Assembly (NCBI GenBank): GCA_963702475.1 | Contig: CAVPCT010000001.1 | Location: 200,545 to 264,544 of the forward strand | Reading direction: 5' to 3' | Length of the DNA stretch: 64,000 nucleotides | Source of the DNA: an uncultured Thermoleophilia bacterium | Lineage (GTDB): Bacteria > Actinomycetota > Thermoleophilia > UBA2241 | Part shown: positions 8,102 through 51,854 of the stretch, piece by piece | Position numbering within the stretch: position 1 is the first letter of the stretch | How the letters are laid out: each line of letters begins with the position of its first letter | Translations under genes and position numbers: made by a program | Notes under the pieces: generated by a model | What the model was told of the DNA's origin: nothing | Databases searched by the model: none | What the model saw: the letters and a program-made list of their open reading frames with translations, nothing else

Positions 8102-8104
8102 CCG

Positions 8105-8868: not shown

Positions 8869-8922
8869 ACCTGTCGCCGGTCGAGTCTCTCACCCGCCGC
8901 CGCCGGGCCTGGAGAGGCCGTG

Positions 8923-8973
8923 TTGACGCGCCGCCGCGGCGAGGATACAGTTCAAGAAGACCGTTTTCGTCCT
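8923..8973 (+). promoter_or_regulatory. Sigma70-type promoter and putative Rrf2 autoregulatory operator
   Basis: TTGACG(8923)-17 nt-TACAGT(8946), followed by the imperfect inverted repeat AAGAC-N7-GTCCT (8957-8973). Confidence 0.5.
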
Positions 8974-8998
8974 GTCTCGAAGCGACGGTGAGGTACGC

Positions 8999-9415: not shown

Positions 9416-9445
9416 GGCCCCGGGGGCGGGCTCCCGCCCGCCCCG

Positions 9446-10417: not shown

Positions 10418-10444
10418 GTGGTGTCCCCGGTCCCGCCGGCCCAT

Positions 10445-35259: not shown

Positions 35260-35307
35260 GACTGTTCATTCTACTGGACGAGGTGACGCGGGAGCCGCGC
35301 GCCACGT

Positions 35308-36105
35308 TCAGGCCGGCGCGCGGCTGAGATCGTCGTCCCCCGGGTCCTCGTGGCGCACGACCCTCCCCTTCTTGGGCGCGACCCGGCGCGCGAGCGGGAT
35401 GCTGATCTCGTAGAGGACGAGGAGCGGCACGAGCATGGCGAGCATGGAGAAGGGGTCCTGGCTGGGCGTGATGATGGCGGCGGCGATGGCCATGATGACG
35501 ATCGCCCAGCGACGGTTCTTCTTGAGGAACCTGTCGTCGATGACGCCGACCTTGGCGAGCAGCACGAGGATGACCGGCATCTCGAAGACCGCCCCGAAGG
35601 CGAGGATGAAGAGGGCCACGAAGGTGAAGTAATCGGTGGCCCGGTTCTGGATGTTGAAGCTGCCGGCGTTGAAGCCCAGCAGGAACTGCAGGCCGCGCGG
35701 CAGGACCACGAGGTAGCCGAAGACGACGCCCCCGAGGAAGAGGGCGCTGGTGGCCACGACGATGGGGTAGAAGTACTTCTTCTCGCCGGAGGAGAAGGCC
35801 GGCCCCACGTAGGCCCACAGCTGCCAGATGAGGAAGGGGCTGGCCATGAGGATGGCGGCCACCACCCAGACCTTGAGGCTGATGAGGAACGGCTCCGTGG
35901 GGCTGAAGGTGGCGATCTTGTAGGCCGCGGGGTCGAGGTTCGGGACCTGGTTCAGGGGATAGAGGAGCAGGTCGAAGACGCGGTCGCTGAAGATGGAGGC
36001 GATGAGCAGCCCGACGGCGAGCGCGATGACGCACATGACGATGCGCTTGCGCAGCTCGTCGAGGTGTTCGTACAGGCTGAGGCGTGCTTCGGGGTCGACG
36101 GGCAT
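35308..36105 (-). CDS. tatC: Twin-arginine translocase subunit TatC
   Basis: L.EHLDELRKR, SPTEPF, WQLWAYVGP, FEMP, AAIITP.QD, LYEISI. Confidence 0.95.
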   Translation of the reverse strand: MPVDPEARLSLYEHLDELRKRIVMCVIALAVGLLIASIFSDRVFDLLLYPLNQVPNLDPAAYKIATFSPTEPFLISLKVWVVAAILMASPFLIWQLWAYVGPAFSSGEKKYFYPIVVATSALFLGGVVFGYLVVLPRGLQFLLGFNAGSFNIQNRATDYFTFVALFILAFGAVFEMPVILVLLAKVGVIDDRFLKKNRRWAIVIMAIAAAIITPSQDPFSMLAMLVPLLVLYEISIPLARRVAPKKGRVVRHEDPGDDDLSRAPA

Positions 36106-36112
36106 GGCGGCG

Positions 36113-36652
36113 TCAGGCGTCCTTGTCGGCGGCGGCGGTGTCGCGCTCGCCGGTCGCGGTGGCCGAGGAGCCGTTGCCCGACGGCTTCTGGCCGAGCATC
36201 TCTTCGAGCACGGCGTCGTTCATGGCGATGCCGGCGCCCTGTGGCCAGGAGTCGTCATCGTCGACGGGTGGGGCCACCTGCACGGGCTTGTCGACGGCCG
36301 CAGCGCCCGCGCTCTTCGCGGCGCCGGCGCCGATGACCGTCTTGGCCACCGACATCGGGCTCTTGAGGTCGATGGACATGCCGGCCTTGATCGCGCCGAG
36401 CGCCTCGCCGGCGCCGGTGCTCTTGACGTCGTCCTTGACGCCGTTGTAGTCGCTGGTGATGCCGTCCCGCACGCCCTTGAACTCGTCGATGACCTCGTCC
36501 AGCCCCAGCTCTGACTTGGCCGAGTTGGTGGCGCGCCGGAACTCGCGGACGGCGCGCCCCAGGCTGCGCCCGGCCTGGGGCAGGCGATTCGGCCCGAAGA
36601 TCAGCAGGGCGATGACGAGCACAAGGATGATCTCCATGGGGCCGACGCTCAC
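36113..36652 (-). CDS. Twin-arginine translocase TatA/TatB-family subunit
   Basis: GPMEIILVLVIALLIFGPNRLP..GR..REFRRA; RBS GAGGT. Confidence 0.9.
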   Translation of the reverse strand: MSVGPMEIILVLVIALLIFGPNRLPQAGRSLGRAVREFRRATNSAKSELGLDEVIDEFKGVRDGITSDYNGVKDDVKSTGAGEALGAIKAGMSIDLKSPMSVAKTVIGAGAAKSAGAAAVDKPVQVAPPVDDDDSWPQGAGIAMNDAVLEEMLGQKPSGNGSSATATGERDTAAADKDA

Positions 36653-36766
36653 GGGGGGGTACCTCGAGTCGGGAGGGTATCGAGCGCCACTAATCTTAGA
36701 GGGGCCGCTGCGCAGATTCAACGCGGCCCCCTCCGCCCGCCGCCGTTGCTGCTCCGTCCGCGCCTC

Positions 36767-36872: not shown

Positions 36873-36907
36873 CCGCCACGCGCCTCGCACCGGGGTGGGT
36901 CGGTGCC

Positions 36908-37297
36908 TTGGCGCTTCTGCTCATGGGGATGATCGCGACATACCTAACAGACTGGGTCTACGTCTGGCTGTTCATCGTCGCCGGGGCGGCGCTGGTGGTC
37001 GCCATCCTGCTGTTCTCCAAGGTCATCAACCCCAGCCACCCCACGCCCGAGAAGCTGTCCACGTACGAATGCGGCATCCCGCCGGTCGGCAACCCGTGGG
37101 CGCCGTTCGCGGTGCGGTACTACGTGGTCGCACTGCTGTTCCTGGTCTTCGACGTGGAGGCCGTGTTCCTGTTCCCGTGGGCACTCGTGTTCCGCTCGCT
37201 CGGCACGGCGGGCTTCGTCGAGATGCTGCTGTTCATCGCCGTCCTCGGTCTCGGCCTGCTGTACGCGTGGCGAAAGGGGGCGCTGGAGTGGGCGTGA
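36908..37297 (+). CDS. nuoA: NADH-quinone oxidoreductase subunit A
   Basis: [35 protein letters not shown]. Start may be ATG 36923 or 36929. Confidence 0.95.
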
Positions 37298-37833
37298 GCG
37301 ACCTGCGCTACCCGAAGCTCGAGAACTTCAACAAGCCCAACGTCATCACCACGACCGCGGACTTCGTATTCAGCTGGGCGCGCTCGCATTCCGTGTTCCC
37401 GTTCACCTACGGTCTGGCCTGCTGCGCCATCGAGATGCTGAGCTCGGGCTTCGCCCGCTTCGACGTGGCGCGGTACGGCATGGAGGTCTTCCGGCCGACC
37501 CCGCGCCAGTGTGACCTCATGATCGTGGCCGGCACGTGCAACGAGAAGATGGCACCGGTGCTCCGCCGCCTGTACGACCAGATGGCCGAGCCCAAGTGGG
37601 TCATCAGCATGGGCGCCTGCGCCACCAGCGGCGGGCCCTTCTACGACGGCTACAACGTCGTCAACGGCGTCGACAAGATCGTGCCGGTCGACGTGTACAT
37701 CCCCGGCTGCCCGCCGCGTCCCGAGGCCCTGTTCCAGGGGCTGCTGGAGCTTCAGGGCAAGATCCAGCGCCACAAGTTCGTGGCCGAGCTGCCCGAAGTG
37801 GGCGCCGGCGGCGACGTCGCCGAGAAGGGCTGA
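37294..37833 (+). CDS. nuoB: NADH-quinone oxidoreductase subunit B
   Basis: [42 protein letters not shown]. Confidence 0.95.
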
Positions 37834-37834: not shown

Positions 37835-38329
37835 GTGGCGCTCGAGGTCGGCAGCAACCCCATGAGCATGGACGCCATCGCGGAGACGCTGGCGGCCGAC
37901 TTCGGCGGCGATGTCGGCGACGTGCACGTGCAGGAGCCCGACACCATCGTGGCGCGCTGCGACCGTGCCGTGCTCAAGTCGGTGGCACGGCGTCTCAAGG
38001 AGCACCCGCTGATCGGCTATCAGACGCTCAACTTCATCGCCGGTGTCGACCGCATGAAGCACTTCGACAGCGTGTACCACGTGTACTCGTGGAAGACCAA
38101 CACGTGGCTGCAGCTCAGCGTCGAGGTCCCGTTCGGCACGCCCGAGGTCGACACCGTCACCGACGTGTGGCCGGCCGCCGACTGGCACGAGCGCGAGGCG
38201 TGGGACATGGTCGGCATCGTCTATGTCGGCCACCCCGACCTGCGCCGCATCCTGCTCAAGGACGACTTCGTCGGGCACCCGTTGCGCAAGGACTACATCG
38301 ACAGCGCGGAGAACCACCCGCATGTTTGA
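37835..38329 (+). CDS. nuoC: NADH-quinone oxidoreductase subunit C
   Basis: [16 protein letters not shown]...[18 protein letters not shown]. Confidence 0.95.
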
Positions 38330-39538
38330 CCAGTTCGCCACCGTCGAGCCGGACGAGGCCGTCAAGCTCGCGCTGCGACGCCTCGACGAAGCGAACGCGC
38401 GCGGCGAGGGATCGAACCTGGAGGGCATCGCCCTCGACGAGGTGGTCGTCAACATGGGCCCGCAGCACCCCTCCACGCACGGCGTGCTGCGTCTCGTGTG
38501 CACCCTCGACGGCGAGCTCATCAAGGATGTCATCCCGGTGATCGGCTACCTGCATCGCTGCAAGGAGAAGCTCGCCGAGAAGCGCACGTACTACCAGTAC
38601 ATCCCCATCGTCGACCGCACCGAGTACCTCGCCAGCATCAACTGCGAGTGGGGCTACGTGCTGGCGGTCGAGAAGCTCATGGGCATCACGCCGCCGCGGC
38701 GGGTGGAGTTCATCCGCGTCATCAGCGGCGAGCTCATGCGCATCGCCAGCCACCTCGTGGCCGTCGGCACGTTCGTGGCCGACCTCTCGCCGCTGGGCAC
38801 CGCCATGGGCTTCTACACGTTCCGCGACCGCGAGATCGTCCTCGACCTGCTCGAGTCGCTCACGGGCGCGCGCATGATGTTCAACTACTTCCGTTTCGGC
38901 GGGTGTGCGCTACGACCTGCCCGACGGCTGGATAGAGCAGTGCCGCGACTTCCTGAAGAAGATGCCGAAGCTCATTGACGAGTACGAGGCGCTGTGCAGC
39001 GACAACGCCATCTTCTTGCAGCGCACCATGGGCAAGGGCGTGATCACGCAGCAGGACGTCATGGACTACGGCATCACGGGCCCCAACGCGCGCGCCTCGG
39101 GCGTCGCCCTCGACCTGCGCCGCGCCAAGCCGTACTCGGTCTATCCGGAGCTCGACTTCGAGCTGTGCGTGGAGAGCCACGGCGACGTGTACGACCGGTA
39201 CCTCGTGCGCATCCGCGAGATGCGCGAGTGCGTCAAGATCGTGGAGCAGTGCCTCGACATGCTGCCCGAAGGGCCCCGTCCAGCTCGGCTCGCTGCGCGC
39301 CCCCTACGTCATCACGCCGCCGCCGGGCGCCGTGTACGTGGGCCAGGAGAACCCGCGCGGCGAGTACGGCACCTACATCGAGAGCGACGGCTCGCGGTAC
39401 CCGTACCGTCTCAAGTTCCGCGACCCCTGCTTCTGCAACCTGCAGCTCTTCCCCAAGCTGCTCACCGGCATCAAGATCGCCGACGCCATCGCCGTGTCCG
39501 GGAGCATCGACCTCGTGCTCGGAGGCATCGACCGATGA
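38322..39538 (+). CDS. nuoD: NADH-quinone oxidoreductase subunit D (frameshifts near 38905 and 39270-39300, probably assembly indels)
   Basis: [25 protein letters not shown]...DLR, ENPRGE, D.VLGGIDR across three frames; no NiFe CxxC motifs. Confidence 0.92.
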
Positions 39539-40657
39539 TCGACGTCATCCTCGCGATCCTCCGCGCGATCCTGTTCGTCGTGATCGCCTACTCGGTGCTC
39601 ATGGTCGCGGCGCTCGTCAACATCCTGCTGGAGCGCCGCGCCCTGGCCTTCATGCAGGACCGCCTCGGTCCCAACCGCACCGGCTGGCAGGGCACGCTGC
39701 AGAGCGTCGCCGACGCCTTCAAGATGATGGGCAAGGAGGACTTCCGCCCGGCCCTGGCCGACCCCTTCCTGTTCACCCTCGCGCCGATCATCGTCATGAT
39801 CGGCGCCGTCGGTGTGCAGCTCGCGCTGCCGTACACCAACGGCCTCACCGGCGCGAGCCTCGACGTCGGCATCATCTTCATCGTCGCCATCACCGGATTC
39901 ACGACGCTGGCCATCCTCATCGGAGGCTGGTCGTCACGCAACAAGTTCTCCCTCGTCGGCGCCCTGCGCGCCGCCGCGCAGATGGTCTCGGTACGAGATC
40001 CCCATGATCCTGGGCCTGCTCGTCGTGGCCATGGTCGTCGGCTCGCTCAATCTGAACGCGGTCGTGGCGGCGCAGGCGGACTACCAGTGGATCGCCTTCT
40101 ACGCGCCGTTCACCTTCTTCATCTTCTACGTCGCCTCCATCGCGGAGCTGAACCGCGGCCCGTTCGACCTTCCCGAAGGCGAGTCGGAGCTCGTGGCCGG
40201 CTACGTCACCGAGTACTCGGGCATGCGCTTCGGCATGTTCTACCTCAATGAGTACGGCGGCCTCACCATCATGTCCATGGTCGCCGTCACGCTGTTCTTC
40301 GGCGGGTGGCAGGGCCCCTATTCCGACGCCATCGTGTTCTGGAACGTGTCCTGGCTCGGCATCGTGTACTTCCTCATCAAGACGTACATCCTGGTGTTCG
40401 CCCTCATCTGGATACGCCTGTCGCTGCCGCGACTGCAGGTCGACCAGCTCATGGCGTTCGCCTGGAAGATCCTCATCCCGCTGGGGCTCGTCAACATCCT
40501 CTGCACGGCCGCCATCATGCTGTGGGCGCCGCAGTGGAAGCTGGCCATGGCCGCCTTCAGCTGGGTCGCCCTGATCGCCTTCGCCGGCCTGTTCGACCCC
40601 ATCCTCAAACGGCGCCTGCGCAAGCAGCGTGAGCGCCAGCCGGTGGTGAACGTCTGA
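39535..40657 (+). CDS. nuoH: NADH-quinone oxidoreductase subunit H (frameshift near 39990)
   Basis: ERR..A.MQDRLGPNR, AD..K...KE, GALRAAAQMVS/YE, AE.NR.PFDLPEGESELVAG, W.R...PR...DQ. Confidence 0.93.
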
Positions 40658-41418
40658 TGCTCGGCATGCTGAAGGCCATGCGCACCACGATCGGCCACCT
40701 TCCCAAACGCAAGATCACGGTGCAGTACCCGGAGCAGCGCGAGCAGCTCCCGGAGCGCAGCCGCGGCCTGTTCCGCGTGGTCGTCGATCCGGTGACGGGA
40801 GACCCGCGTTGCCGCTCCTGCACGCTCTGCGAGAGCAACTGCCCGGTGCAGGTCATCCGCGTGAACCACACCAGCAGGTACAACGTGCCTGTGCCCAACA
40901 CGGCGCGCATCGCGCAGGTGCGCGTGGAGGCCCAGGCCGACGTGGACATCAAGGCGCTGCAGCCGGTGCTGGACGACTACTACGAGCACGGCACCGGCCT
41001 CATCGCCCTGCTGCAGAACGCGCAGGCGGTGTACGGTTACCTGCCGCGCCTGGTCATCCAGGAGATCTCGCTGCAGACCGGCATCTCCCTCAGCCAGATC
41101 TACGGTGTGTCGAGCTTCTACAACCAGTTCCGCCTCTCGCCCGTGGGCGAGCACATCATCGACGTGTGCCACGGCACGGCCTGCCACGTGGCGGGGGCCG
41201 TGCAGATCACCGAGGCGCTGGAGGAGGAGCTCGGGATCCCCGACGGCAAGACCACCAAGGACATGAAGTTCACGCTGTCGTCCGTGGCCTGCATGGGGGC
41301 CTGTTCGCAGGCTCCCGTGATGCGCATCGGCGACAAGACCTACGGCGGCCTCACCCCTGACAAGACGCGCACCATCATCCGCGACCTCATGGCCGAACTG
41401 GGCGCGGAGAAGGGGTGA
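40657..41418 (+). CDS. Fusion: N-terminal half of NuoI + NuoE/HydC-like [2Fe-2S] subunit
   Basis: ITVQYPE...LPER.RG..CRSCTLCESNCP (a single ferredoxin motif), then LI.LLQ.AQ..YGYLP, GVSSFY.QF, CHGTAC, CMGAC..AP. Confidence 0.9.
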   Translation: MLGMLKAMRTTIGHLPKRKITVQYPEQREQLPERSRGLFRVVVDPVTGDPRCRSCTLCESNCPVQVIRVNHTSRYNVPVPNTARIAQVRVEAQADVDIKALQPVLDDYYEHGTGLIALLQNAQAVYGYLPRLVIQEISLQTGISLSQIYGVSSFYNQFRLSPVGEHIIDVCHGTACHVAGAVQITEALEEELGIPDGKTTKDMKFTLSSVACMGACSQAPVMRIGDKTYGGLTPDKTRTIIRDLMAELGAEKG

Positions 41419-43367
41419 CGAGAGACACCATGGCAGACGAGATCAGAGACGACGCGACCGAGGTCGCCGAGGCAGCACAGGCCGCGGCGGCGACCGCGGC
41501 GCCTGAGAACGAGGCACGCAACGTGCGCGTCGCGGCAGCGCCGGGCGGCGGCTACAAGGTCACCGTGTGCGCCGGCACCGCCTGCGTGTTCGCCGGCTCC
41601 ATGGCCGTGTTCGACGCGTTCGTGGAGGAGGTCCAGACGGCCGGCCTGGGCGACCGCGTGGAGGTCAGCATCATCGGCTGCCACGGCCTCTGCTCCATGA
41701 GCCCCGTCGTCGTGCTCAGCGACGACACGCTGTACGGGCACCTGCGTCCCCGGGACGTCGGCAAGGTCGTGCAGGAGCACCTCGTGGACGGCACGCCGGT
41801 GGAGCGCTTCCTCTACAAGGATGCGCAGACCGGCGAACGCATCCGCGACTGGCACGAGATCGGCTTCTACAAGCAGCAGACGCGCATCGCCCTGCGCGAC
41901 GTGGGCGTCATCGACCCGGAGAGCATCGACGAGTACGTCGCGCGCGGCGGCTACGAGGCCGCGCGTCTGTCGCTCTCCGAGAAGACGCCCGAGTGGATCA
42001 TCCAGCACGTCACCGACTCGGGCATCCGCGGCCGTGGCGGCGCCGGCTTCCCGACGGGCGTCAAGTGGAAGTTCGCCAACCAGTCGCAAAGCGACCAGAA
42101 GTACCTCATCTGCAACGCCGACGAGGGTGACCCCGGCGCGTTCATGGACTGCTCCATCCTCGAGGGCGACCCGCACGCCGTGCTCGAGGGCATGGTCATC
42201 GGCAGCTACGCCATCGGCGCGCACGAGGGGTACGTGTACGTGCGCGCCGAGTACCCGCTGGCCGTGAAGCGCCTCACCAAGGCGGTCGCCGACGCCGAGG
42301 CGCGCGGCTTCCTCGGCAAGGACATCTTCGGCACCGGCTGGGAGTTCGACCTGCACCTCAAGCTCGGCGCCGGCGCCTTCGTGTGCGGCGAAGAGACGGC
42401 GCTCATCGCCTCCATCGAGGGCAAGCGCGGCATGCCGCGCACGCGGCCGCCGTTCCCGGCCGTCTCCGGTCTCTGGGGCAAGCCGACGAACATCAACAAC
42501 GTCGAGACCTTCAGCAACATCCCCTGGATCATCATGCACGGTGCCGAGGCCTACGCTGCGCTCGGCGTAGAGACCAGCCGCGGCACCAAGGCCTTCAGCC
42601 TGGCCGGCAAGATCGTCAACGGTGGCCTCGCAGAGGTTCCCATGGGCTCCACCCTCCGCCACGTCATCTTCGACGTGGGCGGCGGCATCAAGGACGGCAA
42701 GGCGTTCAAGGCCGTACAGCTCGGCGGCCCCTCCGGCGGCTGCGTGCCGGCGAGCCTGCTCGACACGCCGGTCGACTACGAGAGCCTCGCCGCGACCGGC
42801 GCCATCGTCGGCTCCGGCGGCATGGTCGTGGTGGACGAGGACACCTGCATGGTCGACCTCGCGCGCTTCTTCCTCGACTTCACGCAGAAGGAGTCGTGCG
42901 GCAAGTGCGTGCCGTGCCGCCTCGGCACGAAGCGCATGCTCGAGACGCTCGACCGCATCATCGCCGGTTGTGGCAGGGACGGCGACATCGAGCTGCTCGA
43001 GGAGCTCAGCCGCTACGTCATCGAGGGCAGCCTGTGCGCGCTCGGCGGCACTGCGCCCAACCCGGTGCTCACCACCATCAAGTACTTCCGCGAGGAGTAC
43101 GAGGCGCACGTCTACGAGAAGCGCTGCCCGGCCGGCAAGTGCAAGGACCTCATCGAGTACTACATCGACGCTGAGGCCTGCACGGGCTGCATGCTCTGCG
43201 CCAAGAAGTGCCCCACCGAGTGCATCACCGGCGAGAAGAAGCAGCCGCACGTGATCGACGTGAGCGCCTGCATCAAGTGCGACACCTGTCGCCAGGTCTG
43301 CAAGTTCGACGCCGTCAAGGTCCACTCGGGCGTCGCCGAGATCGCGGCCGCGGGGCAGGGGGCGTAA
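41415..43367 (+). CDS. NuoF/HydB (BfuB/StnB)-type FMN/NADH subunit with N-terminal [2Fe-2S] and C-terminal 2x[4Fe-4S]
   Basis: CAGTAC..GCHGLC, RGRGGAGFPTG, NADEGDPGAFMD, GAGAFVCGEETAL, GGPSG, SCGKCVPCR, LCALG, H...RCPAGKC, CTGCMLCAKKCP, CIKCDTCRQVC. Confidence 0.93.
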   Translation: MTRDTMADEIRDDATEVAEAAQAAAATAAPENEARNVRVAAAPGGGYKVTVCAGTACVFAGSMAVFDAFVEEVQTAGLGDRVEVSIIGCHGLCSMSPVVVLSDDTLYGHLRPRDVGKVVQEHLVDGTPVERFLYKDAQTGERIRDWHEIGFYKQQTRIALRDVGVIDPESIDEYVARGGYEAARLSLSEKTPEWIIQHVTDSGIRGRGGAGFPTGVKWKFANQSQSDQKYLICNADEGDPGAFMDCSILEGDPHAVLEGMVIGSYAIGAHEGYVYVRAEYPLAVKRLTKAVADAEARGFLGKDIFGTGWEFDLHLKLGAGAFVCGEETALIASIEGKRGMPRTRPPFPAVSGLWGKPTNINNVETFSNIPWIIMHGAEAYAALGVETSRGTKAFSLAGKIVNGGLAEVPMGSTLRHVIFDVGGGIKDGKAFKAVQLGGPSGGCVPASLLDTPVDYESLAATGAIVGSGGMVVVDEDTCMVDLARFFLDFTQKESCGKCVPCRLGTKRMLETLDRIIAGCGRDGDIELLEELSRYVIEGSLCALGGTAPNPVLTTIKYFREEYEAHVYEKRCPAGKCKDLIEYYIDAEACTGCMLCAKKCPTECITGEKKQPHVIDVSACIKCDTCRQVCKFDAVKVHSGVAEIAAAGQGA

Positions 43368-43375
43368 GAGGAGTC

Positions 43376-45854
43376 ATGGCGACGACGGTCGAGAACATCC
43401 CGCAGGCCGAGGTCCGCACCGGACCAGGTGCTCGTCACCATCGACGGGCAGGAGGTGGCGTGCGAGCGCGGCGAGACCATCCTGGAGGCCGCTCGCCGCG
43501 TCGGCATCAGCATCCCGACGCTGTGCTACGAGCCGCGGCTGCCGGCCACCGCCGCCTGCCGCATGTGCATCGTCGAGGTCGAGGGCGCGCGCAAGATGGT
43601 GCCCAGCTGCTCCGCCGCCGTCGCCGACGGCATGGTGGTGCGCACCGACACCGAGAAGATCCGCGCCATGCGGCACCTGTATCTGGAGCTGCTGCTGAGC
43701 GACCACAACTCGTTCTGCACGCCGCCCTGCCGCGACGCCTGCCCCACGCACATCAAGATCCCGCAGTTCCTCGACTACATCTCGCAGCGCGACTACAAGA
43801 ACGGCGTGCGCAAGCTGCGCGAGGACCTGCCCTTCCCGGGCGTGCTCGGCCGCGTGTGCCCGCGCCCCTGTGAGGGCCCGTGCCGCCGCCAGCTCGTGGA
43901 GGAGCCCATCACCATCTGCCAGCTCCACCGCTTCATGGCCGACGAGACCAGGGACGAGGAGCAGGAGGGCGAGCTGCTGCTGCCGGTCGAGCCCAAGGCC
44001 GACACCGGCAAGCGCATCGCCGTGGTCGGCGGCGGCCCCGCCGGCATGGCCGCCGCGTTCTACGCGCGGCTCGAGGGCCACTCCGTGAAGATCTTCGAGG
44101 CGCTGCCCAAGATCGGCGGCATGCTGCGCTACGGCATCCCCAGCTACCGGATGCCGCGCGACGTCCTGGACGCCGAGACCAACATCCTCTGGCGGCTGGG
44201 CGTGGAGCTCCAGGTCGACAGCCGCCTGGGTGTGGACTACCAGATCGAGGACCTCTTCGCGCAGGGTTTCGACGCGGTGTTCCTGGCGCTCGGGGCCTTC
44301 AACTCCAACGACATGGGCGTCCCCGGCGAGGACGCCCAGGGCGTCGTCACCGCCGTGGACTTCCTCGGCGAGCTCGAGCTCACGGGCGACGTGCACGTGG
44401 GCCGCAAGGTCACCGTGATCGGCGGCGGCTTCACCGCCATGGACGCCTGCCGCACCAGCATCCGCAAGGGCGCCGCCCAGGTCACCTGCCTCTACCGCCG
44501 CTCGCGCAAGGAGATGCCCGCCCATCACACCGAGGTCGACGAGGCCGAGGAGGAGGGCGTCAAGCTCGAGCTGCTCTGCGCGCCGGTGCGCGTGGTGACC
44601 GATGCGGACCACAAGGTCACCGGCATCGAGATGCAGCGCATGGAGCTCGGCGAGCCCGACGCCTCCGGCCGCCGGCGCCCGGTCCCCGTGGAGGGCAGCG
44701 AGTTCATCATCGAGTGCGACCAGATCATCACCGCCATCGGCCAGTTCCCCAAGCTGGACGGCACCAGCGAGGAACAGGGCGTCAAGCGCACCAAGTGGCG
44801 CACCATCGAGGTGGACGACTGGACCTTCCAGACGGAGGATCCGCGCGTGTTCGCCGGAGGCGACGTCGTGCTCGGCGCGCAGACGGTCATCCAGGCCATC
44901 GCCCAGGGCAAGAAGGCCGCGTGGAGCATGGACGCGTACCTGCGCGGCCTCGACATGCACGAGGTCTCGGAGTCACTCGGCGAGCTGCGCCGCACGCCGT
45001 TCTTCGACGCGCTCTCCGTGAAGGCCGGCATGGACCCGGCCGTCGCGCGCATGGCCGAGGTGCCGCCCACGTTCATCGACATGACCACCGACATCACGCG
45101 CCCCAGCCCGCCGGCCGGGATGCCCAAGCTCGGGCCCGACGAGCGCAAGACCAACTTCAAGCAGATCGAGCTGGGCTTCCCCGAGGAGGAGGCCGTGCGC
45201 GGCGCCGAGCTGTGCCTGCAGTGCTACTGCCCGGCCAGCGGCACCTGCGACCTGCAGAAGTACTCCATCGAGTACGAGGTCTTCAAGAACCGCTTCCACG
45301 GCGGCGAGGCGCACGACTACCCGGCCGACTTCCGTCACGACTTCATCATGCGCGAACCCAACCGCTGCATCAGCTGCGGGCGCTGCGTGCGCGTGTGCCG
45401 CATGGAGGTCGGCTCGAGCTGCTACGACAACATGGGCCGCGGCTTCGACTCCATCGTCTCCACCGCCGACAACCTGCCCTTGCAGCTCGTCGGCTGCGTG
45501 AGCTGCGGCAAGTGCGCGGAGACGTGCCCCACCGGCTCCATCGAGACCAATCCGCGGCGTCTGGAGAGCTACGACCTCGACGAGAGCCGCTGCATCTTCT
45601 GCGGGGAGTGCGTGGAGGTCTGCCCCTACAACGCGCTCGAACAGACCGACTTCTTCGAGCTCGCCGACTACAGCCGCACCAAGCTGGCCACGCAGTCGCT
45701 GTACGTGCGCGAACCGCGCCCGGTCGACCCGCTGCGCGAGACGCTCAAGGACCTCGTGCCGCACGTGCTCGACGCCGAGCGCGGCGAGGGCTGGACCTGG
45801 GAGCCCATCAAGGACGACCCCATCGTGCTCGACGAGCCGGGAGGCCACCACTGA
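43376..45854 (+). CDS. StnC/SfrB-like fusion: NuoG-type [2Fe-2S] + GltD/NfnB FAD/NADPH domain + NuoG-type Fe-S domains + C-terminal half of NuoI (one extra base near 43415)
   Basis: RBS AGAGGAG-ATG 43376. IPTLC..ACRMC.VE..PSC; PCRDACP, GRVCPRPCEGPC; GGGPAG, GGMLRYGIP, GGGFTAMD, YRRS, FAGGD; CLQCYC, CDLQ; CISCGRCVRVC, CVSCGKCAETCP; YDLDESRCIFCGECVEVCP..FELADYSR. Confidence 0.9.
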
Positions 45855-46369
45855 TGCCGGGCGGCGACTTCCAGCCCTGGCTGTTCTTCATCCTGGCGGC
45901 GTGGATCCTCATCTGCGCCCTCGGCGTGGTGGTCTTCAAGAAGGTCATGTACTCGGCCGTGGCCATGGTCTTCTGCTTCCTGGGCGTCGCCTTCGCCTAC
46001 GCGCTGCTGGCCGCCTCGCTGGTCGCGATCATCCAGCTTCTGGTGTACGTGGGCGCCATCTCCGTCGTGATCATCTTCGCGATCATGCTCACCGAGGTGC
46101 AGTCCGGCGGCTTCGACCTCTTCTTCAACCGCCAGACGGCCATCGCCGCGCCGCTGGCCATCGTCGCGGCCGGCGTGGTCATCGCCGTCCTCGCCGGCTC
46201 CACGATCGGCGGCGTCGGCGAGAAGGCGCTCAACCCGGGCGTGCGCGGCGTCTCGCACATCCTGTTCGCCGCGTACGTGTTCCCGTTCGAGCTGGTCTCG
46301 CTGGTGCTGGTCGCCGCGATGATCGGCGCGATCGTGCTGGCGCGCCGTGAAGAGGAGAAGAAGTCGTGA
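45854..46369 (+). CDS. nuoJ: NADH-quinone oxidoreductase subunit J
   Basis: QLLVYVGAISV..IFAIML, Y.FPFELVSL.LVAAMIGAIVL. Confidence 0.94.
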   Translation: MPGGDFQPWLFFILAAWILICALGVVVFKKVMYSAVAMVFCFLGVAFAYALLAASLVAIIQLLVYVGAISVVIIFAIMLTEVQSGGFDLFFNRQTAIAAPLAIVAAGVVIAVLAGSTIGGVGEKALNPGVRGVSHILFAAYVFPFELVSLVLVAAMIGAIVLARREEEKKS

Positions 46370-46674
46370 ACCCTCTCTACTGGTGGCTCACGCTCTCGGT
46401 GTGTCTCTTCTGCATCGGCGCGTTCGGCGTGCTCGCGCGCCGTAACGTCATCGTGGTGGTCATGTGCCTGGAGCTCATGCTCAACGCCGTGAACATCGCC
46501 CTGGTGGCGACCAGCAACTTCCGCAGCGGCGCCCAGGGTGCCGGCCAGCTGTTCGCGTTGTTCATCATCGTGCTGGCCGCCGCCGAGGTCACCGTGGGTC
46601 TCGCCATCGTCATCGCCAACTACCGCAACCGTCGCACGGTCCAGACCGACCGGTTCGACGAGCTCAAAGGCTGA
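46366..46674 (+). CDS. nuoK: NADH-quinone oxidoreductase subunit K
   Basis: RRN.I...MCLELMLNA.N, AAAEV.VGLAI. Confidence 0.95.
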   Translation: MNPLYWWLTLSVCLFCIGAFGVLARRNVIVVVMCLELMLNAVNIALVATSNFRSGAQGAGQLFALFIIVLAAAEVTVGLAIVIANYRNRRTVQTDRFDELKG

Positions 46675-46685: not shown

Positions 46686-48626
46686 GTGGAAGCAGAAGCC
46701 ACCACGCACATCATCACGGAGGGCCCGCAGTTCCTGCGGGTCGCGGTGGCCCTCATCGTGCTTCTGCCGCTCCTGGGCTTCATCGTGACGCTCGTCTTCG
46801 GCAAGCGTTGGGGATCCAAGGCGCATATCCTGCCGGTCGCCATGGTGACCGCCACGGCCGTCCTCAGCATCTACGCCTTCGAGTGGGTGTTCCGGCACTC
46901 CGAGGAGACGTTCGTATGGAACGCCTTCACCTGGATCGCGGCCGGGCGCTTCGAGATCGCCTGGGGCTTCCAGGTGGACTCGCTCACCGGCGTCATGCTG
47001 CTGGTGGTCGGTATCATCGGCATGCTCGTGCACTACTACTCCATCGGGTACATGCACGGCGACGAGGGCTACTACCGGTTCTTCGCCTACCTCAATCTCT
47101 TCATGTTCGCGATGTTCGTGCTCATCCTCGCGAACAACTACGTGCTGCTCTTCCTCGGCTGGGAGGGCGTCGGTCTCTGCTCCTACCTGCTGATCTCTTT
47201 CTGGTTCGCCAAGAAGAGCGCCAGCCAGGCGGGCAAGAAGGCGTTCCTCGTGAACCGCGTGGGCGACTTCGGGTTCACGCTCGGCATGTTCCTCATCTTC
47301 ACCGCGACCGGCACCCTGCAGTTCACGGGCGTGTTCGAGAAGGCGCCGGAGATCGCGCAGGGTACCCTCCTGTGGATCTGCCTGCTGCTGTTCACCGGCG
47401 CCGTCGGCAAGAGCGCGCAGTTCCCGCTGCACGTGTGGCTGCCGGATGCCATGGAGGGCCCCACCCCGGTCAGCGCCCTGATCCACGCCGCCACCATGGT
47501 CAACGCCGGCGTGTACATGGTCGCGCGCTCGTATCCGCTCTTTCTGGAGACGCACACGGCGATGCTGGTGGTGATGGGCATCGGCGCCTTCACGGCGATC
47601 TACGCGGCGTACATCGCCATCACGCAGAACGACATCAAGAAGGTCATCGCCTACTCCACGCTGTCGTCGCTGGGCTTCATGTTCCTGGCCCTTGGGGCCG
47701 GCGCCTGGGTGGCCGGCATCTTCTACCTGTTCGCACACGGCTTCTTCAAGGGCCTCATGTTCCTCTGTTCGGGCTCGGTGATCCACGCCATGGGCGGCGA
47801 GCAGGACATGCGCAAGATGGGCGGGCTGCGCAAGAAGATCCCCATCACCTTCTGGACCATGCTCATCGGCGCCCTGGCCATGGTCGGCATCATCCCGTTC
47901 GCCGGGTTCTGGGCGAAGGACGAGATCATCGGCGCCGCCTGGGTGCACGGGTACTACGTGGTGTGGGCGGTGGCCATGGTCACCGTGGTGCTCACCGGCA
48001 TCTACGTGTTCCGCCTCATCTTCATGACCTTCTGGGGCGAGAGCCGTGCCGACGCCGAGGTGCAGCACCACATCCACGAGTCGCCGCCGGTCATGACCGT
48101 ACCGCTCATCCTCCTCGCCATCCCGGCTGTGGGCCTGGGTCTCCTGGTCGGCCTTCCGCCGGAGGGAGGCTGGCTGCACTCCTTCCTCGAGCCCGTCTTC
48201 TTCGAGACCGAGCACGAGGTGTTCACGTGGATCGGCGAGGGCGGCGCGCTCATGGGCGTCTCGCTGCTCGCCGCCCTGGCCGGCATCTACGTCGCGTGGC
48301 GCTACTACGTGCGCGACACCGCCGCCCCGGCGCGCATCGCGGGGCGCGTGCCGATCCTGTACAAGGCCAGCTTCAACAAGATGTACATGGACGAGATCTA
48401 CGAGGTCGCGCCCATCCGCGCCACCATCGGCGCCTCCGTGTGGCTGTGGCAGGTCGTGGACGCCAGGATCATCGACGGCGCCGTGAACGGCGTTGGCAAG
48501 GTCTGGGGATGGGTCGGCACCGGTCTGCGCCCCATCCAGACCGGCCGCGTGCAGAACTACGCGATGTACGTGTTCGCCGGCATGATCGCGCTGGTCGTCG
48601 TCCTCGCCTGGATCTGGGGGGCGTGA
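46686..48626 (+). CDS. nuoL: NADH-quinone oxidoreductase subunit L
   Basis: GWEGVGLCSYLL, NRVGD, GKSAQFPLHVWLPDAMEGPTPVSALIHAATMV, HGFFK, QDMRKMGGL, QTGRVQNY. Confidence 0.96.
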   Translation: MEAEATTHIITEGPQFLRVAVALIVLLPLLGFIVTLVFGKRWGSKAHILPVAMVTATAVLSIYAFEWVFRHSEETFVWNAFTWIAAGRFEIAWGFQVDSLTGVMLLVVGIIGMLVHYYSIGYMHGDEGYYRFFAYLNLFMFAMFVLILANNYVLLFLGWEGVGLCSYLLISFWFAKKSASQAGKKAFLVNRVGDFGFTLGMFLIFTATGTLQFTGVFEKAPEIAQGTLLWICLLLFTGAVGKSAQFPLHVWLPDAMEGPTPVSALIHAATMVNAGVYMVARSYPLFLETHTAMLVVMGIGAFTAIYAAYIAITQNDIKKVIAYSTLSSLGFMFLALGAGAWVAGIFYLFAHGFFKGLMFLCSGSVIHAMGGEQDMRKMGGLRKKIPITFWTMLIGALAMVGIIPFAGFWAKDEIIGAAWVHGYYVVWAVAMVTVVLTGIYVFRLIFMTFWGESRADAEVQHHIHESPPVMTVPLILLAIPAVGLGLLVGLPPEGGWLHSFLEPVFFETEHEVFTWIGEGGALMGVSLLAALAGIYVAWRYYVRDTAAPARIAGRVPILYKASFNKMYMDEIYEVAPIRATIGASVWLWQVVDARIIDGAVNGVGKVWGWVGTGLRPIQTGRVQNYAMYVFAGMIALVVVLAWIWGA

Positions 48627-48627: not shown

Positions 48628-50214
48628 GTGACCTGGCAAGACCAGATGGGCTTCCCCGTGCTCAGCGTCATCACCTTTCTGCCGCTCGCCGGCGTCGTGC
48701 TCATGCTGCTCCTCGGTCGCGGGCGACCGCAGGTGTACAAGGTCATCGCGCTCGTCGCCACGCTCGCCGCCTTCGCCCTGAGCATCTGGATGATGGTCGT
48801 CTTCAACACCGGTGAGCCCGGCGTGCAGTTCACCGAAGACGTCATGTGGATCGAGCAGTTCAACATCCACTACCGCTTCGGTGTGGACGGCATCGCCGCC
48901 GTCCTGCTCTTCCTGACCACGTTCCTCGGCGTCATCGTGGTCCTCGGCAGCTGGCACTACGTGAAGGACAGGGAGCTCGGCTTCTTCGTGTCGCTCCTGT
49001 TGCTGCAGGTGGGCATGGCCGGCGTGTTCTGCGCCACCGACCTCTTCCTGTTCTACGTGTTCTGGGAGGCCATGCTGGTGCCGATGTACTTCATCATCGG
49101 CATCTGGGGTGGCCCGCGGCGCATCTACGCGGCCATCAAGTTCTTCCTGTTCACGCTGATCGGCAGCCTGCTCATGCTGGTCGCCATCATCGTGGTCGTG
49201 TACGCGGCCAAAGACCAGGCCGGTCACCTCACGTGGGACATCCAGGAGCTCGGCCGCATGGTGTTCACCTACGACCTGCAGTTCTGGGCCTTCCTCGCCT
49301 TCTTCGTGGCCTTCGCCATCAAGGTGCCGATGTTCCCGGTGCACACCTGGCTCCCGGACGCGCACGTCGAGGCGCCCACGGCCGGCTCCGTGATCCTCGC
49401 CGGCGTGCTCCTGAAGATGGGTGGATACGGCATCCTGCGCTTCTGCCTGCCCTTCTTCCCGGACGCGGCCGTCACGTTCATCCCGTACATCATCGTGCTG
49501 TCGGTGATCGCCGTCGTGTACGGGGCGATGGTGTCGCTCGTGCAGAAGGACCTCAAGAAGCTGGTCGCCTACTCGAGCGTGAGCCACATGGGGTTCGTGA
49601 CCATGGGCATCTTCGCGGCCATCGCCGTACTGGGGAACGCCGCCGGCATGGAGGGCGCCATCCTGGTGATGTTCAGCCACGGCCTGCTCACGGGCGCCCT
49701 GTTCCTCATGGTCGGCTACATGTACGAGCGCACGCACACGCGACAGATCGCCGACCTCGGCCAGCTGGCCAAGCCGATGCCGGTCATGGCCGGCTTCTTC
49801 CTGTTCTTCGTGTTCGGGTCGGCGGGGCTGCCCGGGCTCAGCGGTTTCGTCGGGGAGTTCCTGAGCCTGCTCGGGCTGTTCGCGTACTCGCACTGGCTGG
49901 CGGCCGTCGCCGCCACCGGCGTCATCCTGGCGGCGGCCTACCTGCTCTGGATGTTCCAGCGCACGATGTTCAACGATCGCGGCGACGCCGAGCTGCGGCC
50001 GTCCACGCCGCTCGCCGACCTCAACCTGCGTGAGATCACCACGCTCGTCCCGCTGGTGGTGCTGGTCATCTGGGTCGGCGTCTACCCGGCCACGCTGCTC
50101 GACTACCTGCACGTGCCCGTGGACATGATCCTGCTGCGCGTCACGCCCGCCCTCAGCAGCGAGCACACGAACGTGCTGGCCCAGCTGGTCGACACCGCGA
50201 AAGGTCTCTTCTGA
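48628..50214 (+). CDS. nuoM: NADH-quinone oxidoreductase subunit M
   Basis: FYVFWEAML.PMY, AFAIKVPMFPVHTWLPDAHVEAPT, LLKMG.YG, AYSSVSHMG, GLPG.SGFVGEF. Confidence 0.96.
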   Translation: MTWQDQMGFPVLSVITFLPLAGVVLMLLLGRGRPQVYKVIALVATLAAFALSIWMMVVFNTGEPGVQFTEDVMWIEQFNIHYRFGVDGIAAVLLFLTTFLGVIVVLGSWHYVKDRELGFFVSLLLLQVGMAGVFCATDLFLFYVFWEAMLVPMYFIIGIWGGPRRIYAAIKFFLFTLIGSLLMLVAIIVVVYAAKDQAGHLTWDIQELGRMVFTYDLQFWAFLAFFVAFAIKVPMFPVHTWLPDAHVEAPTAGSVILAGVLLKMGGYGILRFCLPFFPDAAVTFIPYIIVLSVIAVVYGAMVSLVQKDLKKLVAYSSVSHMGFVTMGIFAAIAVLGNAAGMEGAILVMFSHGLLTGALFLMVGYMYERTHTRQIADLGQLAKPMPVMAGFFLFFVFGSAGLPGLSGFVGEFLSLLGLFAYSHWLAAVAATGVILAAAYLLWMFQRTMFNDRGDAELRPSTPLADLNLREITTLVPLVVLVIWVGVYPATLLDYLHVPVDMILLRVTPALSSEHTNVLAQLVDTAKGLF

Positions 50215-51854
50215 TGGGCGCCGCCAACAACGCCATCGTCGTGATCCTGCCCGGCGTCGTCCTGGCCGTGGCCGCCGCCCTGGTGCTGGTCGTCGACCTC
50301 TTCACGGAGCGCAAGGGCATGCTCGCGTGGCTCGCGGCCGGCGGTTTCGTCGCGACGGCGGCCGTGGCCGTGGGGCAGTGGATCCGCTTCACCGACGGTC
50401 GCCTGCTGTTCAACGCACGCAAGCCCGAGACCGGGTTCGCCGGCATGGTGTCCCTGGACAAGTACGCGCTGTTCTGCGTGGTGCTGTTCTGCGCCATCGG
50501 CGTGGCCACCGTCATGCTGTCGGACTCGTATCTGGCGCGTCGCCGCGCCGCACGCGGCGAGTTCTACGTGCTGCTCATGCTCATCGTCACCGGCATGATC
50601 GGCATGGTCGTCAGCACCGACATCATCGCCTTCTTCGTGTCGTTCGAGCTCATGTCGCTGCCCACGTACGTGCTCGCCGGCTACCTGTGGCGCGACGTAC
50701 GCTCGGGCGAAGCCTCCATCAAGTACTTCGTCACCGGCGCCTTCTCGTCGGCCATCCTGGCCTTCGGCCTGGCCCTGTTGTACGGCGCCACCGGGCAGAC
50801 CAGCTACGCCGGCATCGCGCAGGGACTGGCCGCCATCGACGCGCGCGGGCTGGACGCCCGCGGCTTCCTCGTGGTCGCCTTCGTGCTCGTGGTCACCGGC
50901 TTCGGCTTCAAGATCTCGGCCGTGCCGTTCCACAGCTGGGCGCCAGACGTGTACGAGGGGGCGCCCACGCCGGTCACCGCCTTCATGTCCACCGGCGTCA
51001 AGGCCGCCGCCTTCGCCGGCTTCGCCAAGCTGTTCGTGCTCGCCGCCGCCGTGCAGTGGCAGCTGTGGGTGCACACCATGACCATCCTCGCGATCCTCAC
51101 CATGGTCGTGGGGAACGTGCTCGCTCTGCCGCAGCGCAACATCAAGCGCATGCTCGCCTACTCCAGCGTCGCCCACGCGGGGTACCTCACCCTGGGCCTC
51201 ATCGCGGCCGGTACGGCGGGCGTCTGGGACGGTGTCACCGCCATCCTGTTCTACCTGGTCACGTACGCGCTGATGAACCTGGGCGCCTTCGGCGCGCTCG
51301 TCTGGATCCGTAACAAGCGCGCCTTCGACTACTCGCTGGACGGCATCGCCGGCCTGGGACGCACGATGCCGTGGCCGGCGATGATGCTGGCCGTGCTCAT
51401 GGTCTCACTCACGGGCATCCCGCCGACGGCCGGCTTCTGGGGCAAGTTCTACCTGTTCACCGCCGTCATCCGGGCCGACCTCACGTGGCTGGCGATCATC
51501 GCCGTCGTCATGAGCGCCGTGTCCGCCTACTACTACCTGCGGGTGGTGTGGTTCATGTACTTCCGTGAGGCGAACGAGCCGGCCGCCGCAGGCGACGTCT
51601 CCCCGGCGGCCGTGGGCGCTCCGAGCGCGGTCGCCGTCCCGGGCGCCGTCTTCGCCTCCGCTGCCGGCGGGGCAGCCTCGGCATCGGGCACGTCGGGCGC
51701 TCCCGTCGAGCCGCCCGCGCAGCGCCAGCCCGGTCAGGCGGGCGTGGTGTGGGCTGTGAGCCTGTGCGTCTTCGGCGTGATCGCCGTCGGCCTGTTCCCC
51801 GGGCCGCTGCTGCGGTTCGCGGAGGGCGCGCTGCGGGTGGTCCTCGGCGGGTGA
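50214..51854 (+). CDS. nuoN: NADH-quinone oxidoreductase subunit N
   Basis: E..SLP.Y, EAS.KYF, GFKISAVPFH.WAPDVYEGAP, KRMLAYSS..HAGY, SL.GIPP.AGF.GK, YYYLR. Confidence 0.96.
   Translation: MGAANNAIVVILPGVVLAVAAALVLVVDLFTERKGMLAWLAAGGFVATAAVAVGQWIRFTDGRLLFNARKPETGFAGMVSLDKYALFCVVLFCAIGVATVMLSDSYLARRRAARGEFYVLLMLIVTGMIGMVVSTDIIAFFVSFELMSLPTYVLAGYLWRDVRSGEASIKYFVTGAFSSAILAFGLALLYGATGQTSYAGIAQGLAAIDARGLDARGFLVVAFVLVVTGFGFKISAVPFHSWAPDVYEGAPTPVTAFMSTGVKAAAFAGFAKLFVLAAAVQWQLWVHTMTILAILTMVVGNVLALPQRNIKRMLAYSSVAHAGYLTLGLIAAGTAGVWDGVTAILFYLVTYALMNLGAFGALVWIRNKRAFDYSLDGIAGLGRTMPWPAMMLAVLMVSLTGIPPTAGFWGKFYLFTAVIRADLTWLAIIAVVMSAVSAYYYLRVVWFMYFREANEPAAAGDVSPAAVGAPSAVAVPGAVFASAAGGAASASGTSGAPVEPPAQRQPGQAGVVWAVSLCVFGVIAVGLFPGPLLRFAEGALRVVLGG

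Follow-up and report, generated by a model that had tools for sequence, protein, structure and literature searches.

A Thermoleophilia complex I operon with NuoI split between two proteins of a predicted NfnABC/StnABC-type module

We analyzed a stretch of 64,000 nucleotides (the window) of contig CAVPCT010000001.1 in assembly GCA_963702475.1, which comes from an uncultured Thermoleophilia bacterium and carries a complex I (nuo) operon; coordinates are positions in the window unless another locus is named. The ferredoxin subunit NuoI of this operon is split between two proteins: its N-terminal half (N-half) begins the first, and its C-terminal half (C-half) ends the last, of three genes, called P1, P2, and P3 here, that lie between nuoH and nuoJ. 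From their sequences, the three genes encode a Bfu module of the NfnABC/StnABC type, and we consider it likely that the split NuoI reassembles, with the module acting as the electron input of complex I. The arrangement looks real, conserved in the source bacterium and about 100 relatives, and undescribed.

NuoI is divided between the first and the last of three inserted genes

The complex I core in the window is of the Nuo11 type, with nuoA, nuoB, nuoC, nuoD, nuoH, nuoJ, nuoK, nuoL, nuoM, and nuoN in a single operon on the forward (+) strand. This operon of 13 genes has the Bfu-type module inside nuoI and no separate NuoI. P1 (40657 to 41418; 253 amino acids) starts at the nuoH stop and P3 (43377 to 45854) ends at the nuoJ start, which places the two halves of NuoI at the edges of its usual slot between nuoH and nuoJ. 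Because the gene ends overlap at both borders, nuoH/P1 (40657) and P3/nuoJ (45851 to 45854), there is no room for a separate nuoI. These overlaps and the model matches bear out the preliminary description of this DNA, which had reported that no intact nuoI lies between nuoH and nuoJ.

The NCBIfam model for NuoI, TIGR01971, has 121 positions and a curated cutoff of 113.05 bits. Positions 2 to 66 match residues 8 to 74 of P1 (49.3 bits; E = 3.4e-13), and positions 67 to 116 match residues 706 to 755 of P3 (45543 to 45692; 60.2 bits for the whole protein; E = 1.4e-16). The half-hits are complementary, as had been expected for the two fusions, and neither protein alone attains the cutoff. When the genome was searched in six frames, the same segments again ranked highest on this contig, at 50.1 and 49.6 bits. 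Both CxxCxxCxxxCP motifs of NuoI are present, on two chains: one at C52 to P63 of P1 (40810 to 40845) and the other at C722 to P733 of P3 (motif 3; 45591 to 45626). They fall within the segments in which the halves had been placed, 40657 to 40870 for the N-half and 45550 to 45720 for the C-half, the latter correctly seen as the third ferredoxin motif of P3. The NuoI-specific parts are divided in the same way: P1 has the N-terminal stretch up to the first strand of the hairpin, and P3 has the second strand, motif 3, and the tail. Against the PorD model TIGR02179, P1 scored 20.2 bits, below the cutoff of 60.05.

Each half is fused to another redox protein, and each junction lies inside a single open frame, so the claim that both are in frame holds. 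In P1, the N-half is followed by a linker (residues 76 to 103; 40882 to 40965), defined by the gap between two family matches, and then by the NuoE/HydC domain noted earlier, which matches NuoE at residues 99 to 242 (NF005722; 145.4 bits versus a cutoff of 141) and Pfam 2Fe-2S_thioredx at residues 104 to 244. P3 ends in the C-half. We conclude that the split of NuoI between P1 and P3 is confirmed.

The inserted genes match Bfu enzymes of the NfnABC/StnABC type

P2 (41415 to 43367; 650 amino acids) is a BfuB/NuoF-like flavoprotein. Its Pfam domains are 2Fe-2S_thioredx (residues 42 to 121), Complex1_51K (199 to 370), NADH_4Fe-4S (481 to 565), and Fer4 (582 to 635), and residues 48 to 636 match the B subunits of solved Bfu enzymes of the HydB/NfnB/StnB type at about 800 bits (PDB chains 7t2r_B, 9bov_B, 9n5u_B, 8oh5_B, and 7q4v_B). 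P2 thus has all domains of the BfuB core: the FMN/NADH site, the N-terminal thioredoxin-like [2Fe-2S] domain, and the C-terminal 2x[4Fe-4S] domain. Residues 99 to 244 of P1 correspond to BfuC, the NuoE-like [2Fe-2S] subunit.

P3 is the NfnA-like member. Pfam places Fer2_4 at residues 3 to 75, Fer4_20 at 97 to 177, Pyr_redox_2 at 196 to 494, Fer4_Nqo3 at 639 to 704, and a third Fer4 motif at 717 to 738. The protein is made up of a NuoG-type [2Fe-2S] N terminus, a GltD/NfnL-like FAD/NAD(P)H insert, a NuoG/HydA-type 2x[4Fe-4S] ferredoxin domain (motif 1, C647 to C657; motif 2, C690 to P701; 45366 to 45530), and the NuoI C-half. Residues 3 to 728 match PDB chain 9bov_A with an E value of 1.5e-186; 8oh5_C and 9n5u_A match as well, and NF009454 matches residues 3 to 658. 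The molybdopterin/formate dehydrogenase-like C-terminal domain of NfnA is absent from P3: the match to 9bov_A stops at residue 698 of the 1178 in that chain, and no molybdopterin family is found among 25 of the 26 Pfam matches. At 808 amino acids, P3 compares with 963 to 1178 for the solved NfnA chains, and the NuoI C-half occupies the place of the molybdopterin-like domain.

By these matches, P1-P2-P3 is a Bfu module of the NfnABC/StnABC type. The texts of PMC12018979 and PMC9304861 describe this family, which is also treated in PMC11829005 and PMC7483475, as soluble electron-bifurcating NADH-dependent ferredoxin:NADP+ oxidoreductases. In NfnABC, the extra BfuB domains are described as carrying the low-potential branch to ferredoxin (PMC12018979).

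The split is conserved among relatives

To place the operon among its relatives, we used 401 genomes from families within the class (f1 to f7, with the source genome in f1) and a collection of 5.8 billion proteins; Gxxx denotes other genomes, G000 the source genome, and Lxxx fetched loci. In the protein collection, P1 has 1218 relatives at an E value of ≤1e-10. The best 120 of these cover 96 to 100% of P1 at 64 to 91% identity and come from NCBI, ENA, JGI, and Logan records. The relatives are named Thermoleophilia bacterium, an actinobacterial lineage, at NCBI, and their proteins are annotated at most as "NADH-quinone oxidoreductase subunit E," "FAD-dependent oxidoreductase," or "formate dehydrogenase major subunit."

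P1 is matched at an E value of ≤1e-45 in 75 of the 79 other f1 genomes. Counted by hand among the matches listed, with nine rows lying outside them, the match runs from residue 1 to at least residue 245 in at least 63 of 80 f1 genomes, the source genome included, at 53 to 100% identity and across nine genera; partial matches in 8 further f1 genomes lie at contig ends or over frame breaks. The end of P3 (residues 640 to 808) has a match at an E value of ≤1e-30 in 81 of 89 f1 genomes. By hand count it is of the Nuo type in 71 of the 89, at 63 to 100% identity and from position 1 to at least position 144 of the 169-residue query. As far as each contig extends, the order nuoABCDH-P1-P2-P3-nuoJKLMN is kept in all 21 fetched loci of relatives.

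A reduced form occurs in family f6. In 23 of 24 genomes, the NuoI N-half, a vestigial NuoE that gives no family hit, and a plain NuoF core make up one frame of about 605 amino acids; downstream of this triple-fusion gene come a P3-like gene that carries the NuoI C-half and, after it, nuoJ. An f6-type query at an E value of ≤1e-12 found no match in 79 f2, 76 f3, 61 f4, 28 f5, or 44 f7 genomes. On a metagenome contig with 59% G+C (L031), nuoABCDH precede a gene for a NuoI N-half-NuoE protein (31% identity to P1), which is followed by a NuoF core and a P3-like gene that ends in the same way. A further protein of 251 amino acids (P0122; 41% identical to P1) joins the NuoI N-half to NuoE as well; searching the genome contigs with it gave two unrelated partial matches only. 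Two more metagenome contigs were rejected as further split loci: L032 has a canonical nuoH-nuoI-...-nuoN order, and L033 is a fragment. Thus, the synteny that had been proposed beforehand as a check was found, with both fusions kept across f1 and the reduced form in f6 and on L031.

Residues expected to bind clusters are conserved in all parts. In an alignment of 25 sequences reaching down to 31% identity, C52, C55, C58, C62, and P63 of the P1 motif are invariant, as are C171, C176, C212, and C216 of its NuoE part, and P78 and R84 in the linker are nearly so. All twelve cysteines of P3 motifs 1 to 3 are invariant in alignments of 22 and of 25 sequences, as is the proline of motif 3, and the tail beyond motif 3 is kept in 20 of 20 Nuo-type loci.

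Two variants were seen at the P3 gene. In one genome of genus g18 (L035; G245:C5:152000-170000, 8388 to 12052), a protein matches residues 1 to 311 and 459 to 797 of P3, with a stretch like the C-terminal ferredoxin of P2 in between, and the BfuB at this locus is only 30% identical to P2. Three metagenome gene calls (P0318, P0333, and P0380; 638 to 708 amino acids) join the end of P3 to NuoJ (PF00499); they may be genuine fusions or come from frame errors where the stop and start overlap.

The halves would pair across two chains

The complex that we favor would consist of an eleven-subunit core (NuoA, B, C, D, H, J, K, L, M, and N, plus NuoI) with the Bfu trimer, encoded inside nuoI, as its electron input. 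The break in nuoI would lie between the two halves of the beta-hairpin that separates the two cluster motifs. The N-half, with the membrane-side N terminus and the first CxxCxxCxxxCP motif, would have become the N terminus of the NuoE/BfuC-like P1, and the C-half, with the second hairpin strand, the second motif, and the NuoI tail, the C terminus of the NfnA-like P3, where it would have replaced the molybdopterin-like domain. The halves would rejoin as one 2x[4Fe-4S] fold in which, for each of the clusters N6a and N6b, one chain supplies three cysteines and the other chain supplies the fourth, and the halves would tie P1 and P3, with P2 between them, to NuoB, NuoD, and NuoH.

We infer the ligation across two chains from the allotment of motifs. 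In solved domains of the NfnA/HydA/NuoG type, two clusters take up all eight cysteines. Both the Fer4_Nqo3 match and the alignment to 9bov_A set motifs 1 and 2 of P3 against the two motifs of this domain. Since these two motifs fill a NuoG-type two-cluster domain, motif 3 of P3 and the motif of P1 are the only free pair. With a gap of only about 5 residues in P3 between the end of its NuoG-type domain and the part from NuoI, the two cluster pairs would be close to each other.

Complex prediction lent this pairing weak support. Residues 585 to 808 of P3, modeled with four 4Fe-4S clusters and residues 1 to 100 of P1, scored 0.37, versus 0.00 for the best control; at least 68% of contacts agreed between runs, and the partner's predicted local distance difference test score (pLDDT) was at least 53. 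Of 80 solved complexes, 58 attained the mark used, as did 2 of 110 mismatched pairs, and at 0.60 or below only 7 of the 80 and both of these mismatched pairs did so, a calibration that holds roughly for our runs, in which own alignments and a riding ligand were used. Because NuoI structures have already been solved, the pass may reflect likeness only.

Several observations weigh against the two-chain pairing. Besides the low score and partner pLDDT of the complex prediction, the AlphaFold2 model of P3 residues 585 to 808, built from a 25-row alignment, was poor (mean pLDDT, 41.9; predicted template modeling score, 0.23). NuoE is far from NuoI in canonical complex I, so that, with the 28-residue linker of P1, the module may have to be placed differently. 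In addition, nuoD and nuoH are out of frame in the assembly; if the responsible insertions were real, the complex would be dead in this strain.

The other points against it concern the partner of motif 3 and speak for a different reading, in which motifs 2 and 3 of P3 form a complete NuoI-like 2x[4Fe-4S] domain, so that NuoI is fused rather than split and N6a and N6b are bound within one chain; the N-half of P1 would then be a mere anchor, or would bind a cluster with motif 1 or with nothing. Residues 690 to 753 of P3, covering motifs 2 and 3, align in one piece by blastp to residues 132 to 202 of the genome's canonical NuoI, its dicluster core, with both motifs covered and the hairpin 7 residues shorter. 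The spacing of about 20 residues between motifs 2 and 3 suits a ferredoxin of the clostridial type. TIGR01971 positions 42/43 to 115/116 are matched in one stretch in two f6 genomes (G034 and G099), and NF006221 positions 45 to 107 match P3 residues 689 to 752. On the other side, the pair of motifs 1 and 2 corresponds to the ferredoxin domain of NuoG/HydA/NfnA, in which the homologs use both motifs for two clusters, and TIGR01971 gives the stretch with motifs 1 and 2 only 26.1 bits, versus 49.6 for motif 3 and the tail. The four cysteines of P3 motif 1 and the four of the P1 motif are invariant, yet both sets would be left partnerless, and the P1 motif is kept even at 31 to 41% identity and in paralogs associated with 2-oxoacid:ferredoxin oxidoreductase (OFOR) genes, which are described below. 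Given the invariance of these two motifs and the well-defined two-cluster homolog formed by motifs 1 and 2, we judge binding within one chain to be the less likely reading, and on the whole an unlikely one.

An intact NuoI belongs to a separate operon

Whether an intact nuoI elsewhere might serve this complex had been raised in the preliminary description. The source genome does have one: a gene on contig C3 matches TIGR01971 over positions 1 to 121 with 155 bits. It belongs, however, to a complete canonical operon of 14 genes, nuoA to nuoN, with separate nuoE, nuoF, nuoG, and nuoI (G000:C3:198000-224000; L022 and L052), whose subunits are 25 to 51% identical to their counterparts in the window. 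Moreover, no NuoI above the cutoff, but only the halves, was found in 4 of 5 high-quality f1 relatives (G007, G041, G042, and G002; 98 to 100% complete, with G042 assembled into one contig) or in 4 of 5 high-quality f6 genomes (G034, G047, G099, and G029; 98 to 100% complete). In these 8 of 10 organisms, the split form must therefore serve the complex alone.

This distribution bears on the idea that P1 to P3 are a free-standing soluble transhydrogenase of the Nfn type that merely happens to lie in the nuo cluster, with the membrane complex using another ferredoxin subunit or none. The three proteins are indeed close homologs of the soluble NfnABC/StnABC, and the source genome does hold an intact nuoI. 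That gene has its own operon, though, and was not found in the eight relatives just named; P1 and P3 keep a NuoI-specific N terminus and tail over a wide divergence, their ends overlap nuoH and nuoJ, and P3 does without the molybdopterin-like domain of NfnA. We therefore regard a soluble enzyme as very improbable and retain the reading in which the module feeds complex I through a reassembled NuoI.

Single-base insertions in the window are most likely assembly errors

Compared with relatives, the window contains single inserted bases at 38901 and 39265 in nuoD, at 39989 in nuoH, and near 43420, just past the start of P3, as indicated by frame changes in tblastn and by DNA alignment. As a result, nuoD (38322 to 39537; located by tblastn with the nuoD of relatives) and nuoH (39536 to 40657; located by tblastn and DNA alignment) are broken in frame in the assembly. 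The assembled open frame of P3 runs from 43428 to 45854; its true start is probably the ATG near 43377, thrown out of frame by the 1-base insertion near 43420.

Short-read contigs from other sequencing runs cover parts of this region. At most 0.37 of the sampled words were present in any run; for the RNA runs X16 to X20 the fraction was 0.05 to 0.06, and X13 is only guessed to be RNA. A near-identical contig with 7 differences (X1 record 1; 38865 to 39370) is one base short at each of 38900 and 39268. Contigs over 39989 (X1 record 2, X5 record 27, and X13 record 9) have exactly one gap each, somewhere along the piece, and those over 43345 to 43540 have one gap each. Because neither the relatives nor the short-read contigs have the inserted bases, the four insertions are most likely errors of a long-read assembly. 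As for the junctions, over which a check with reads had been suggested, X5 record 28 bridges P1 and P2, and X1 record 7 (45575 to 46102), with 3 differences and free of gaps, spans from the NuoI C-half into nuoJ; none of the short-read pieces listed crosses from nuoH into P1 at 40657.

An assembly chimera or a decaying pseudogene cluster peculiar to the source genome, for which the four insertions within about 4.5 kb and the state of the assembly (9 contigs, 6.49% contamination) might be cited, has next to no probability and, as an explanation of the architecture, is already refuted: the same architecture is found in dozens of independent assemblies and in over 100 protein clusters drawn from several sources, most loci of relatives match nuoD and nuoH each in one full-length piece (exceptions are L048, with nuoH in pieces, and G020/L023, with nuoH frameshifted), and the short-read contigs lack the inserted bases and bridge junctions.

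Proposed electron path and comparison with known systems

In the proposed complex, P2 would oxidize NADH with its FMN, and the GltD-like insert of P3 would oxidize NAD(P)H with its FAD. The electrons would travel along the NuoG-type clusters within P3, reach N6a and N6b, and go on to N2 and menaquinone, while NuoL, NuoM, NuoN, and NuoH would pump protons. A quinone-reducing membrane arm is the likely outlet, since the module genes are inside the nuo operon. In f1, P2 keeps all domains of a bifurcating BfuB, and a role for ferredoxin is therefore possible, either in confurcation onto quinone or in bifurcation driven by quinone reduction. The f6 and L031 forms lack the extra BfuB domains, a loss which suggests a plain NAD(P)H dehydrogenase there.

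Like canonical NuoI (Nqo9/TYKY), the split protein occupies the slot between nuoH and nuoJ, has two CxxCxxCxxxCP motifs with the NuoI-type N-terminal stretch and tail, and presumably holds N6a and N6b between the NuoG-type clusters and N2. Unlike it, the protein is in two pieces about 4.7 kb apart in the operon, each fused to another redox protein. With NfnABC/StnABC (PDB 9bov, 8oh5, and 9n5u), the module shares a NuoE-like C subunit, a BfuB, and an A subunit with a NuoG-like N terminus and a GltD/NfnL-like FAD insert; it differs in that the A subunit ends in the NuoI C-half without a molybdopterin-like domain and the C subunit starts with the NuoI N-half.

Descriptions of complex I usually treat it as a set of modules joined by contacts between proteins. 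In the present case, two polypeptides would form the joint together as one ferredoxin fold, the product of a whole operon inside a gene. If so, this would be a natural split iron-sulfur domain that reassembles and acts as a docking device, and an unusual multigene insertion held over the long term as two in-frame fusions. It would also be a new feed of NADPH, and perhaps ferredoxin, into a proton-pumping quinone reductase of anaerobic actinobacteria with Wood-Ljungdahl genes. Genomes of this kind would be scored as lacking NuoI, because the proteins are annotated only as subunit E, oxidoreductase, or formate dehydrogenase.

Also among the closest known systems is Nuo-Bfu, the predicted bifurcating complex I of Geobacter and others (Schut et al. 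2022, PMC9304861). Its 14 subunits are described as separate, and its hosts as Deferribacteres, Proteobacteria, Planctomycetes, and Nitrospirae. There as here, BfuABC replaces NuoEFG on a complex I-like membrane complex, and menaquinone is proposed as the third substrate. The present operon differs by its Nfn-type A subunit, its split NuoI, the position of the module inside nuoI, and its actinobacterial lineage; it lacks the 14 subunits and separate NuoI by which Nuo-Bfu is defined in that text, which for its part makes no mention of a split or fused NuoI or a GltD-type A subunit for Nuo-Bfu. The same text describes Mbh-Bfu of Dehalococcoides, in which hydrogenase genes flank the BfuABC genes on both sides, possibly a related arrangement.

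In Mbx-like complexes, a GltD-related flavoprotein is described as a substitute for NuoI (Degli Esposti 2015, PMC4758237). The NCBIfam model NF010590 (PRK13984), grouped here with these complexes, matches the NuoI-like N-half of the f6 and P0122 proteins (positions 20 to 70 and 20 to 92) and the GltD part of P3 (positions 198 to 608). Alike in both is a complex I relative whose NuoI position is directly attached to an NAD(P)H site of the GltD type; in that family, the ferredoxin part and GltD are one protein, with no split and no NuoE-, NuoF-, or NuoG-like partners.

The nuo, gltD, and por genes of related actinobacteria are listed in PMC7325909, the text of which does not mention a split. Full-text literature searches, with PMC9304861 covered through its text, turned up no report of NuoI being split or fused, nor of a nuo operon containing an Nfn-type module. 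Thus, the parts were known (complex I, NfnABC, and Bfu modules on membrane complexes), and the manner of their joining was not known before.

Paralogous modules

Contig C5 of the source genome carries a paralog of the module (L021; G000:C5:511000-527000), also of the Nfn type and with its own NuoI-like split ferredoxin, in an OFOR operon, specifically one for pyruvate:ferredoxin oxidoreductase. In the coordinates of L021, porG (3484 to 4086), porD (4083 to 4454), and porA (4458 to 5660) are followed by a half-ferredoxin/NuoE gene (5662 to 6517), BfuB (6514 to 8439), and a gene joining a P3-like part, a half-ferredoxin, and PorB (8460 to 11615), that is, an A subunit-PorB fusion of 1051 amino acids. 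An intact form of the first protein is a fusion of 280 amino acids (P0126), whose N-half matches NuoI models and not PorD. The CxxCxxCxxxCP motif is kept in the N-half of the OFOR-type paralogs. We considered whether this locus might hold a split PorD; the intact porD between porG and porA and the NuoI matches of the N-half rule this out. The OFOR-type arrangement also occurs in three other genomes, G066, G042, and G109 (the last of family f4) (L049 to L051), and in many f1 genomes. Since the module carries a NuoI-like split ferredoxin into this second context, its presence points to duplication of a Nuo-type module together with the halves.

Like the locus on C5, Por-Bfu, a predicted Bfu enzyme linked to pyruvate oxidoreductase, has porG, porD, porA, and porB joined with a BfuABC-type module (text of PMC9304861); the C5 paralog differs in being of the Nfn type and in having a NuoI-like split ferredoxin and an A subunit-PorB fusion.

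More tentatively, the module and its NuoI-derived half-ferredoxins could be a portable "plug," in which the split domain closes a ring between the first subunit and the last and connects the module to different machines. With complex I, the plug would make up a proton-pumping enzyme that has NADH, NADPH, ferredoxin, and menaquinone as its four redox partners. Should this somewhat doubtful reading be true, Bfu-type bifurcation or confurcation could couple directly to quinone reduction and ion translocation, and the PorB-fused plug would connect the pools of pyridine nucleotides with the oxidation or synthesis of pyruvate.

A stand-alone pair of NuoE-like and BfuB genes, with no A subunit beside it, is present at G007:C1:610000-626000 (L054; 7976 to 14175, minus strand) and in the source genome at G000:C3:606000-622000 (L053); its BfuB is 70% identical to P2. 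The pair directly follows fhs, an FTCD_C cyclohydrolase-type gene, and folD, which belong to the methyl branch of the Wood-Ljungdahl pathway, and is followed by gatA and gatB. In a quick BfuB tree (L021 to L054), the OFOR-type and stand-alone BfuB nest in different clades of the nuo-linked BfuB (Shimodaira-Hasegawa-like approximate likelihood ratio support, 98 to 100); this is a quick tree only, from which L043 was left out for a stop codon in its match and in which L035, canonical NuoF, G034, L031, and L034 are long branches. By identity, P1 and P3 are type specific. These sequences hint at exchange of the B subunit between paralogous modules. Frame breaks similar to those in the window were seen in the half-ferredoxin/NuoE gene on contig C5 (L021, about 5950 to 6040) and in the BfuB paralog of L053 (7810 to 7838).

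Other genes of the operon and its upstream neighbors

The remaining genes of the operon were identified from open reading frames and their counterparts in relatives. Upstream of nuoD are nuoA (36908 to 37297), whose orthologs lie at the same place in relatives; nuoB (37300 to 37833, start approximate), read from the frame 36895 to 37833 with N2-type cysteine motifs and a tblastn self-match; and nuoC (37835 to 38329), supported by synteny in relatives. Downstream of P3, open reading frames with orthologs in relatives were assigned to nuoJ (45851 to 46369, its start overlapping the P3 stop), nuoK (46366 to 46674), nuoL (46764 to 48626, start approximate), nuoM (48628 to 50214), and nuoN (50214 to 51854). 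Directly upstream of the operon, on the minus strand (33097 to 36721), are genes for a class A penicillin-binding protein (720 amino acids), tatC (265 amino acids), and a TatA-like protein with a long tail (202 amino acids), names that were given from reading the translations only.

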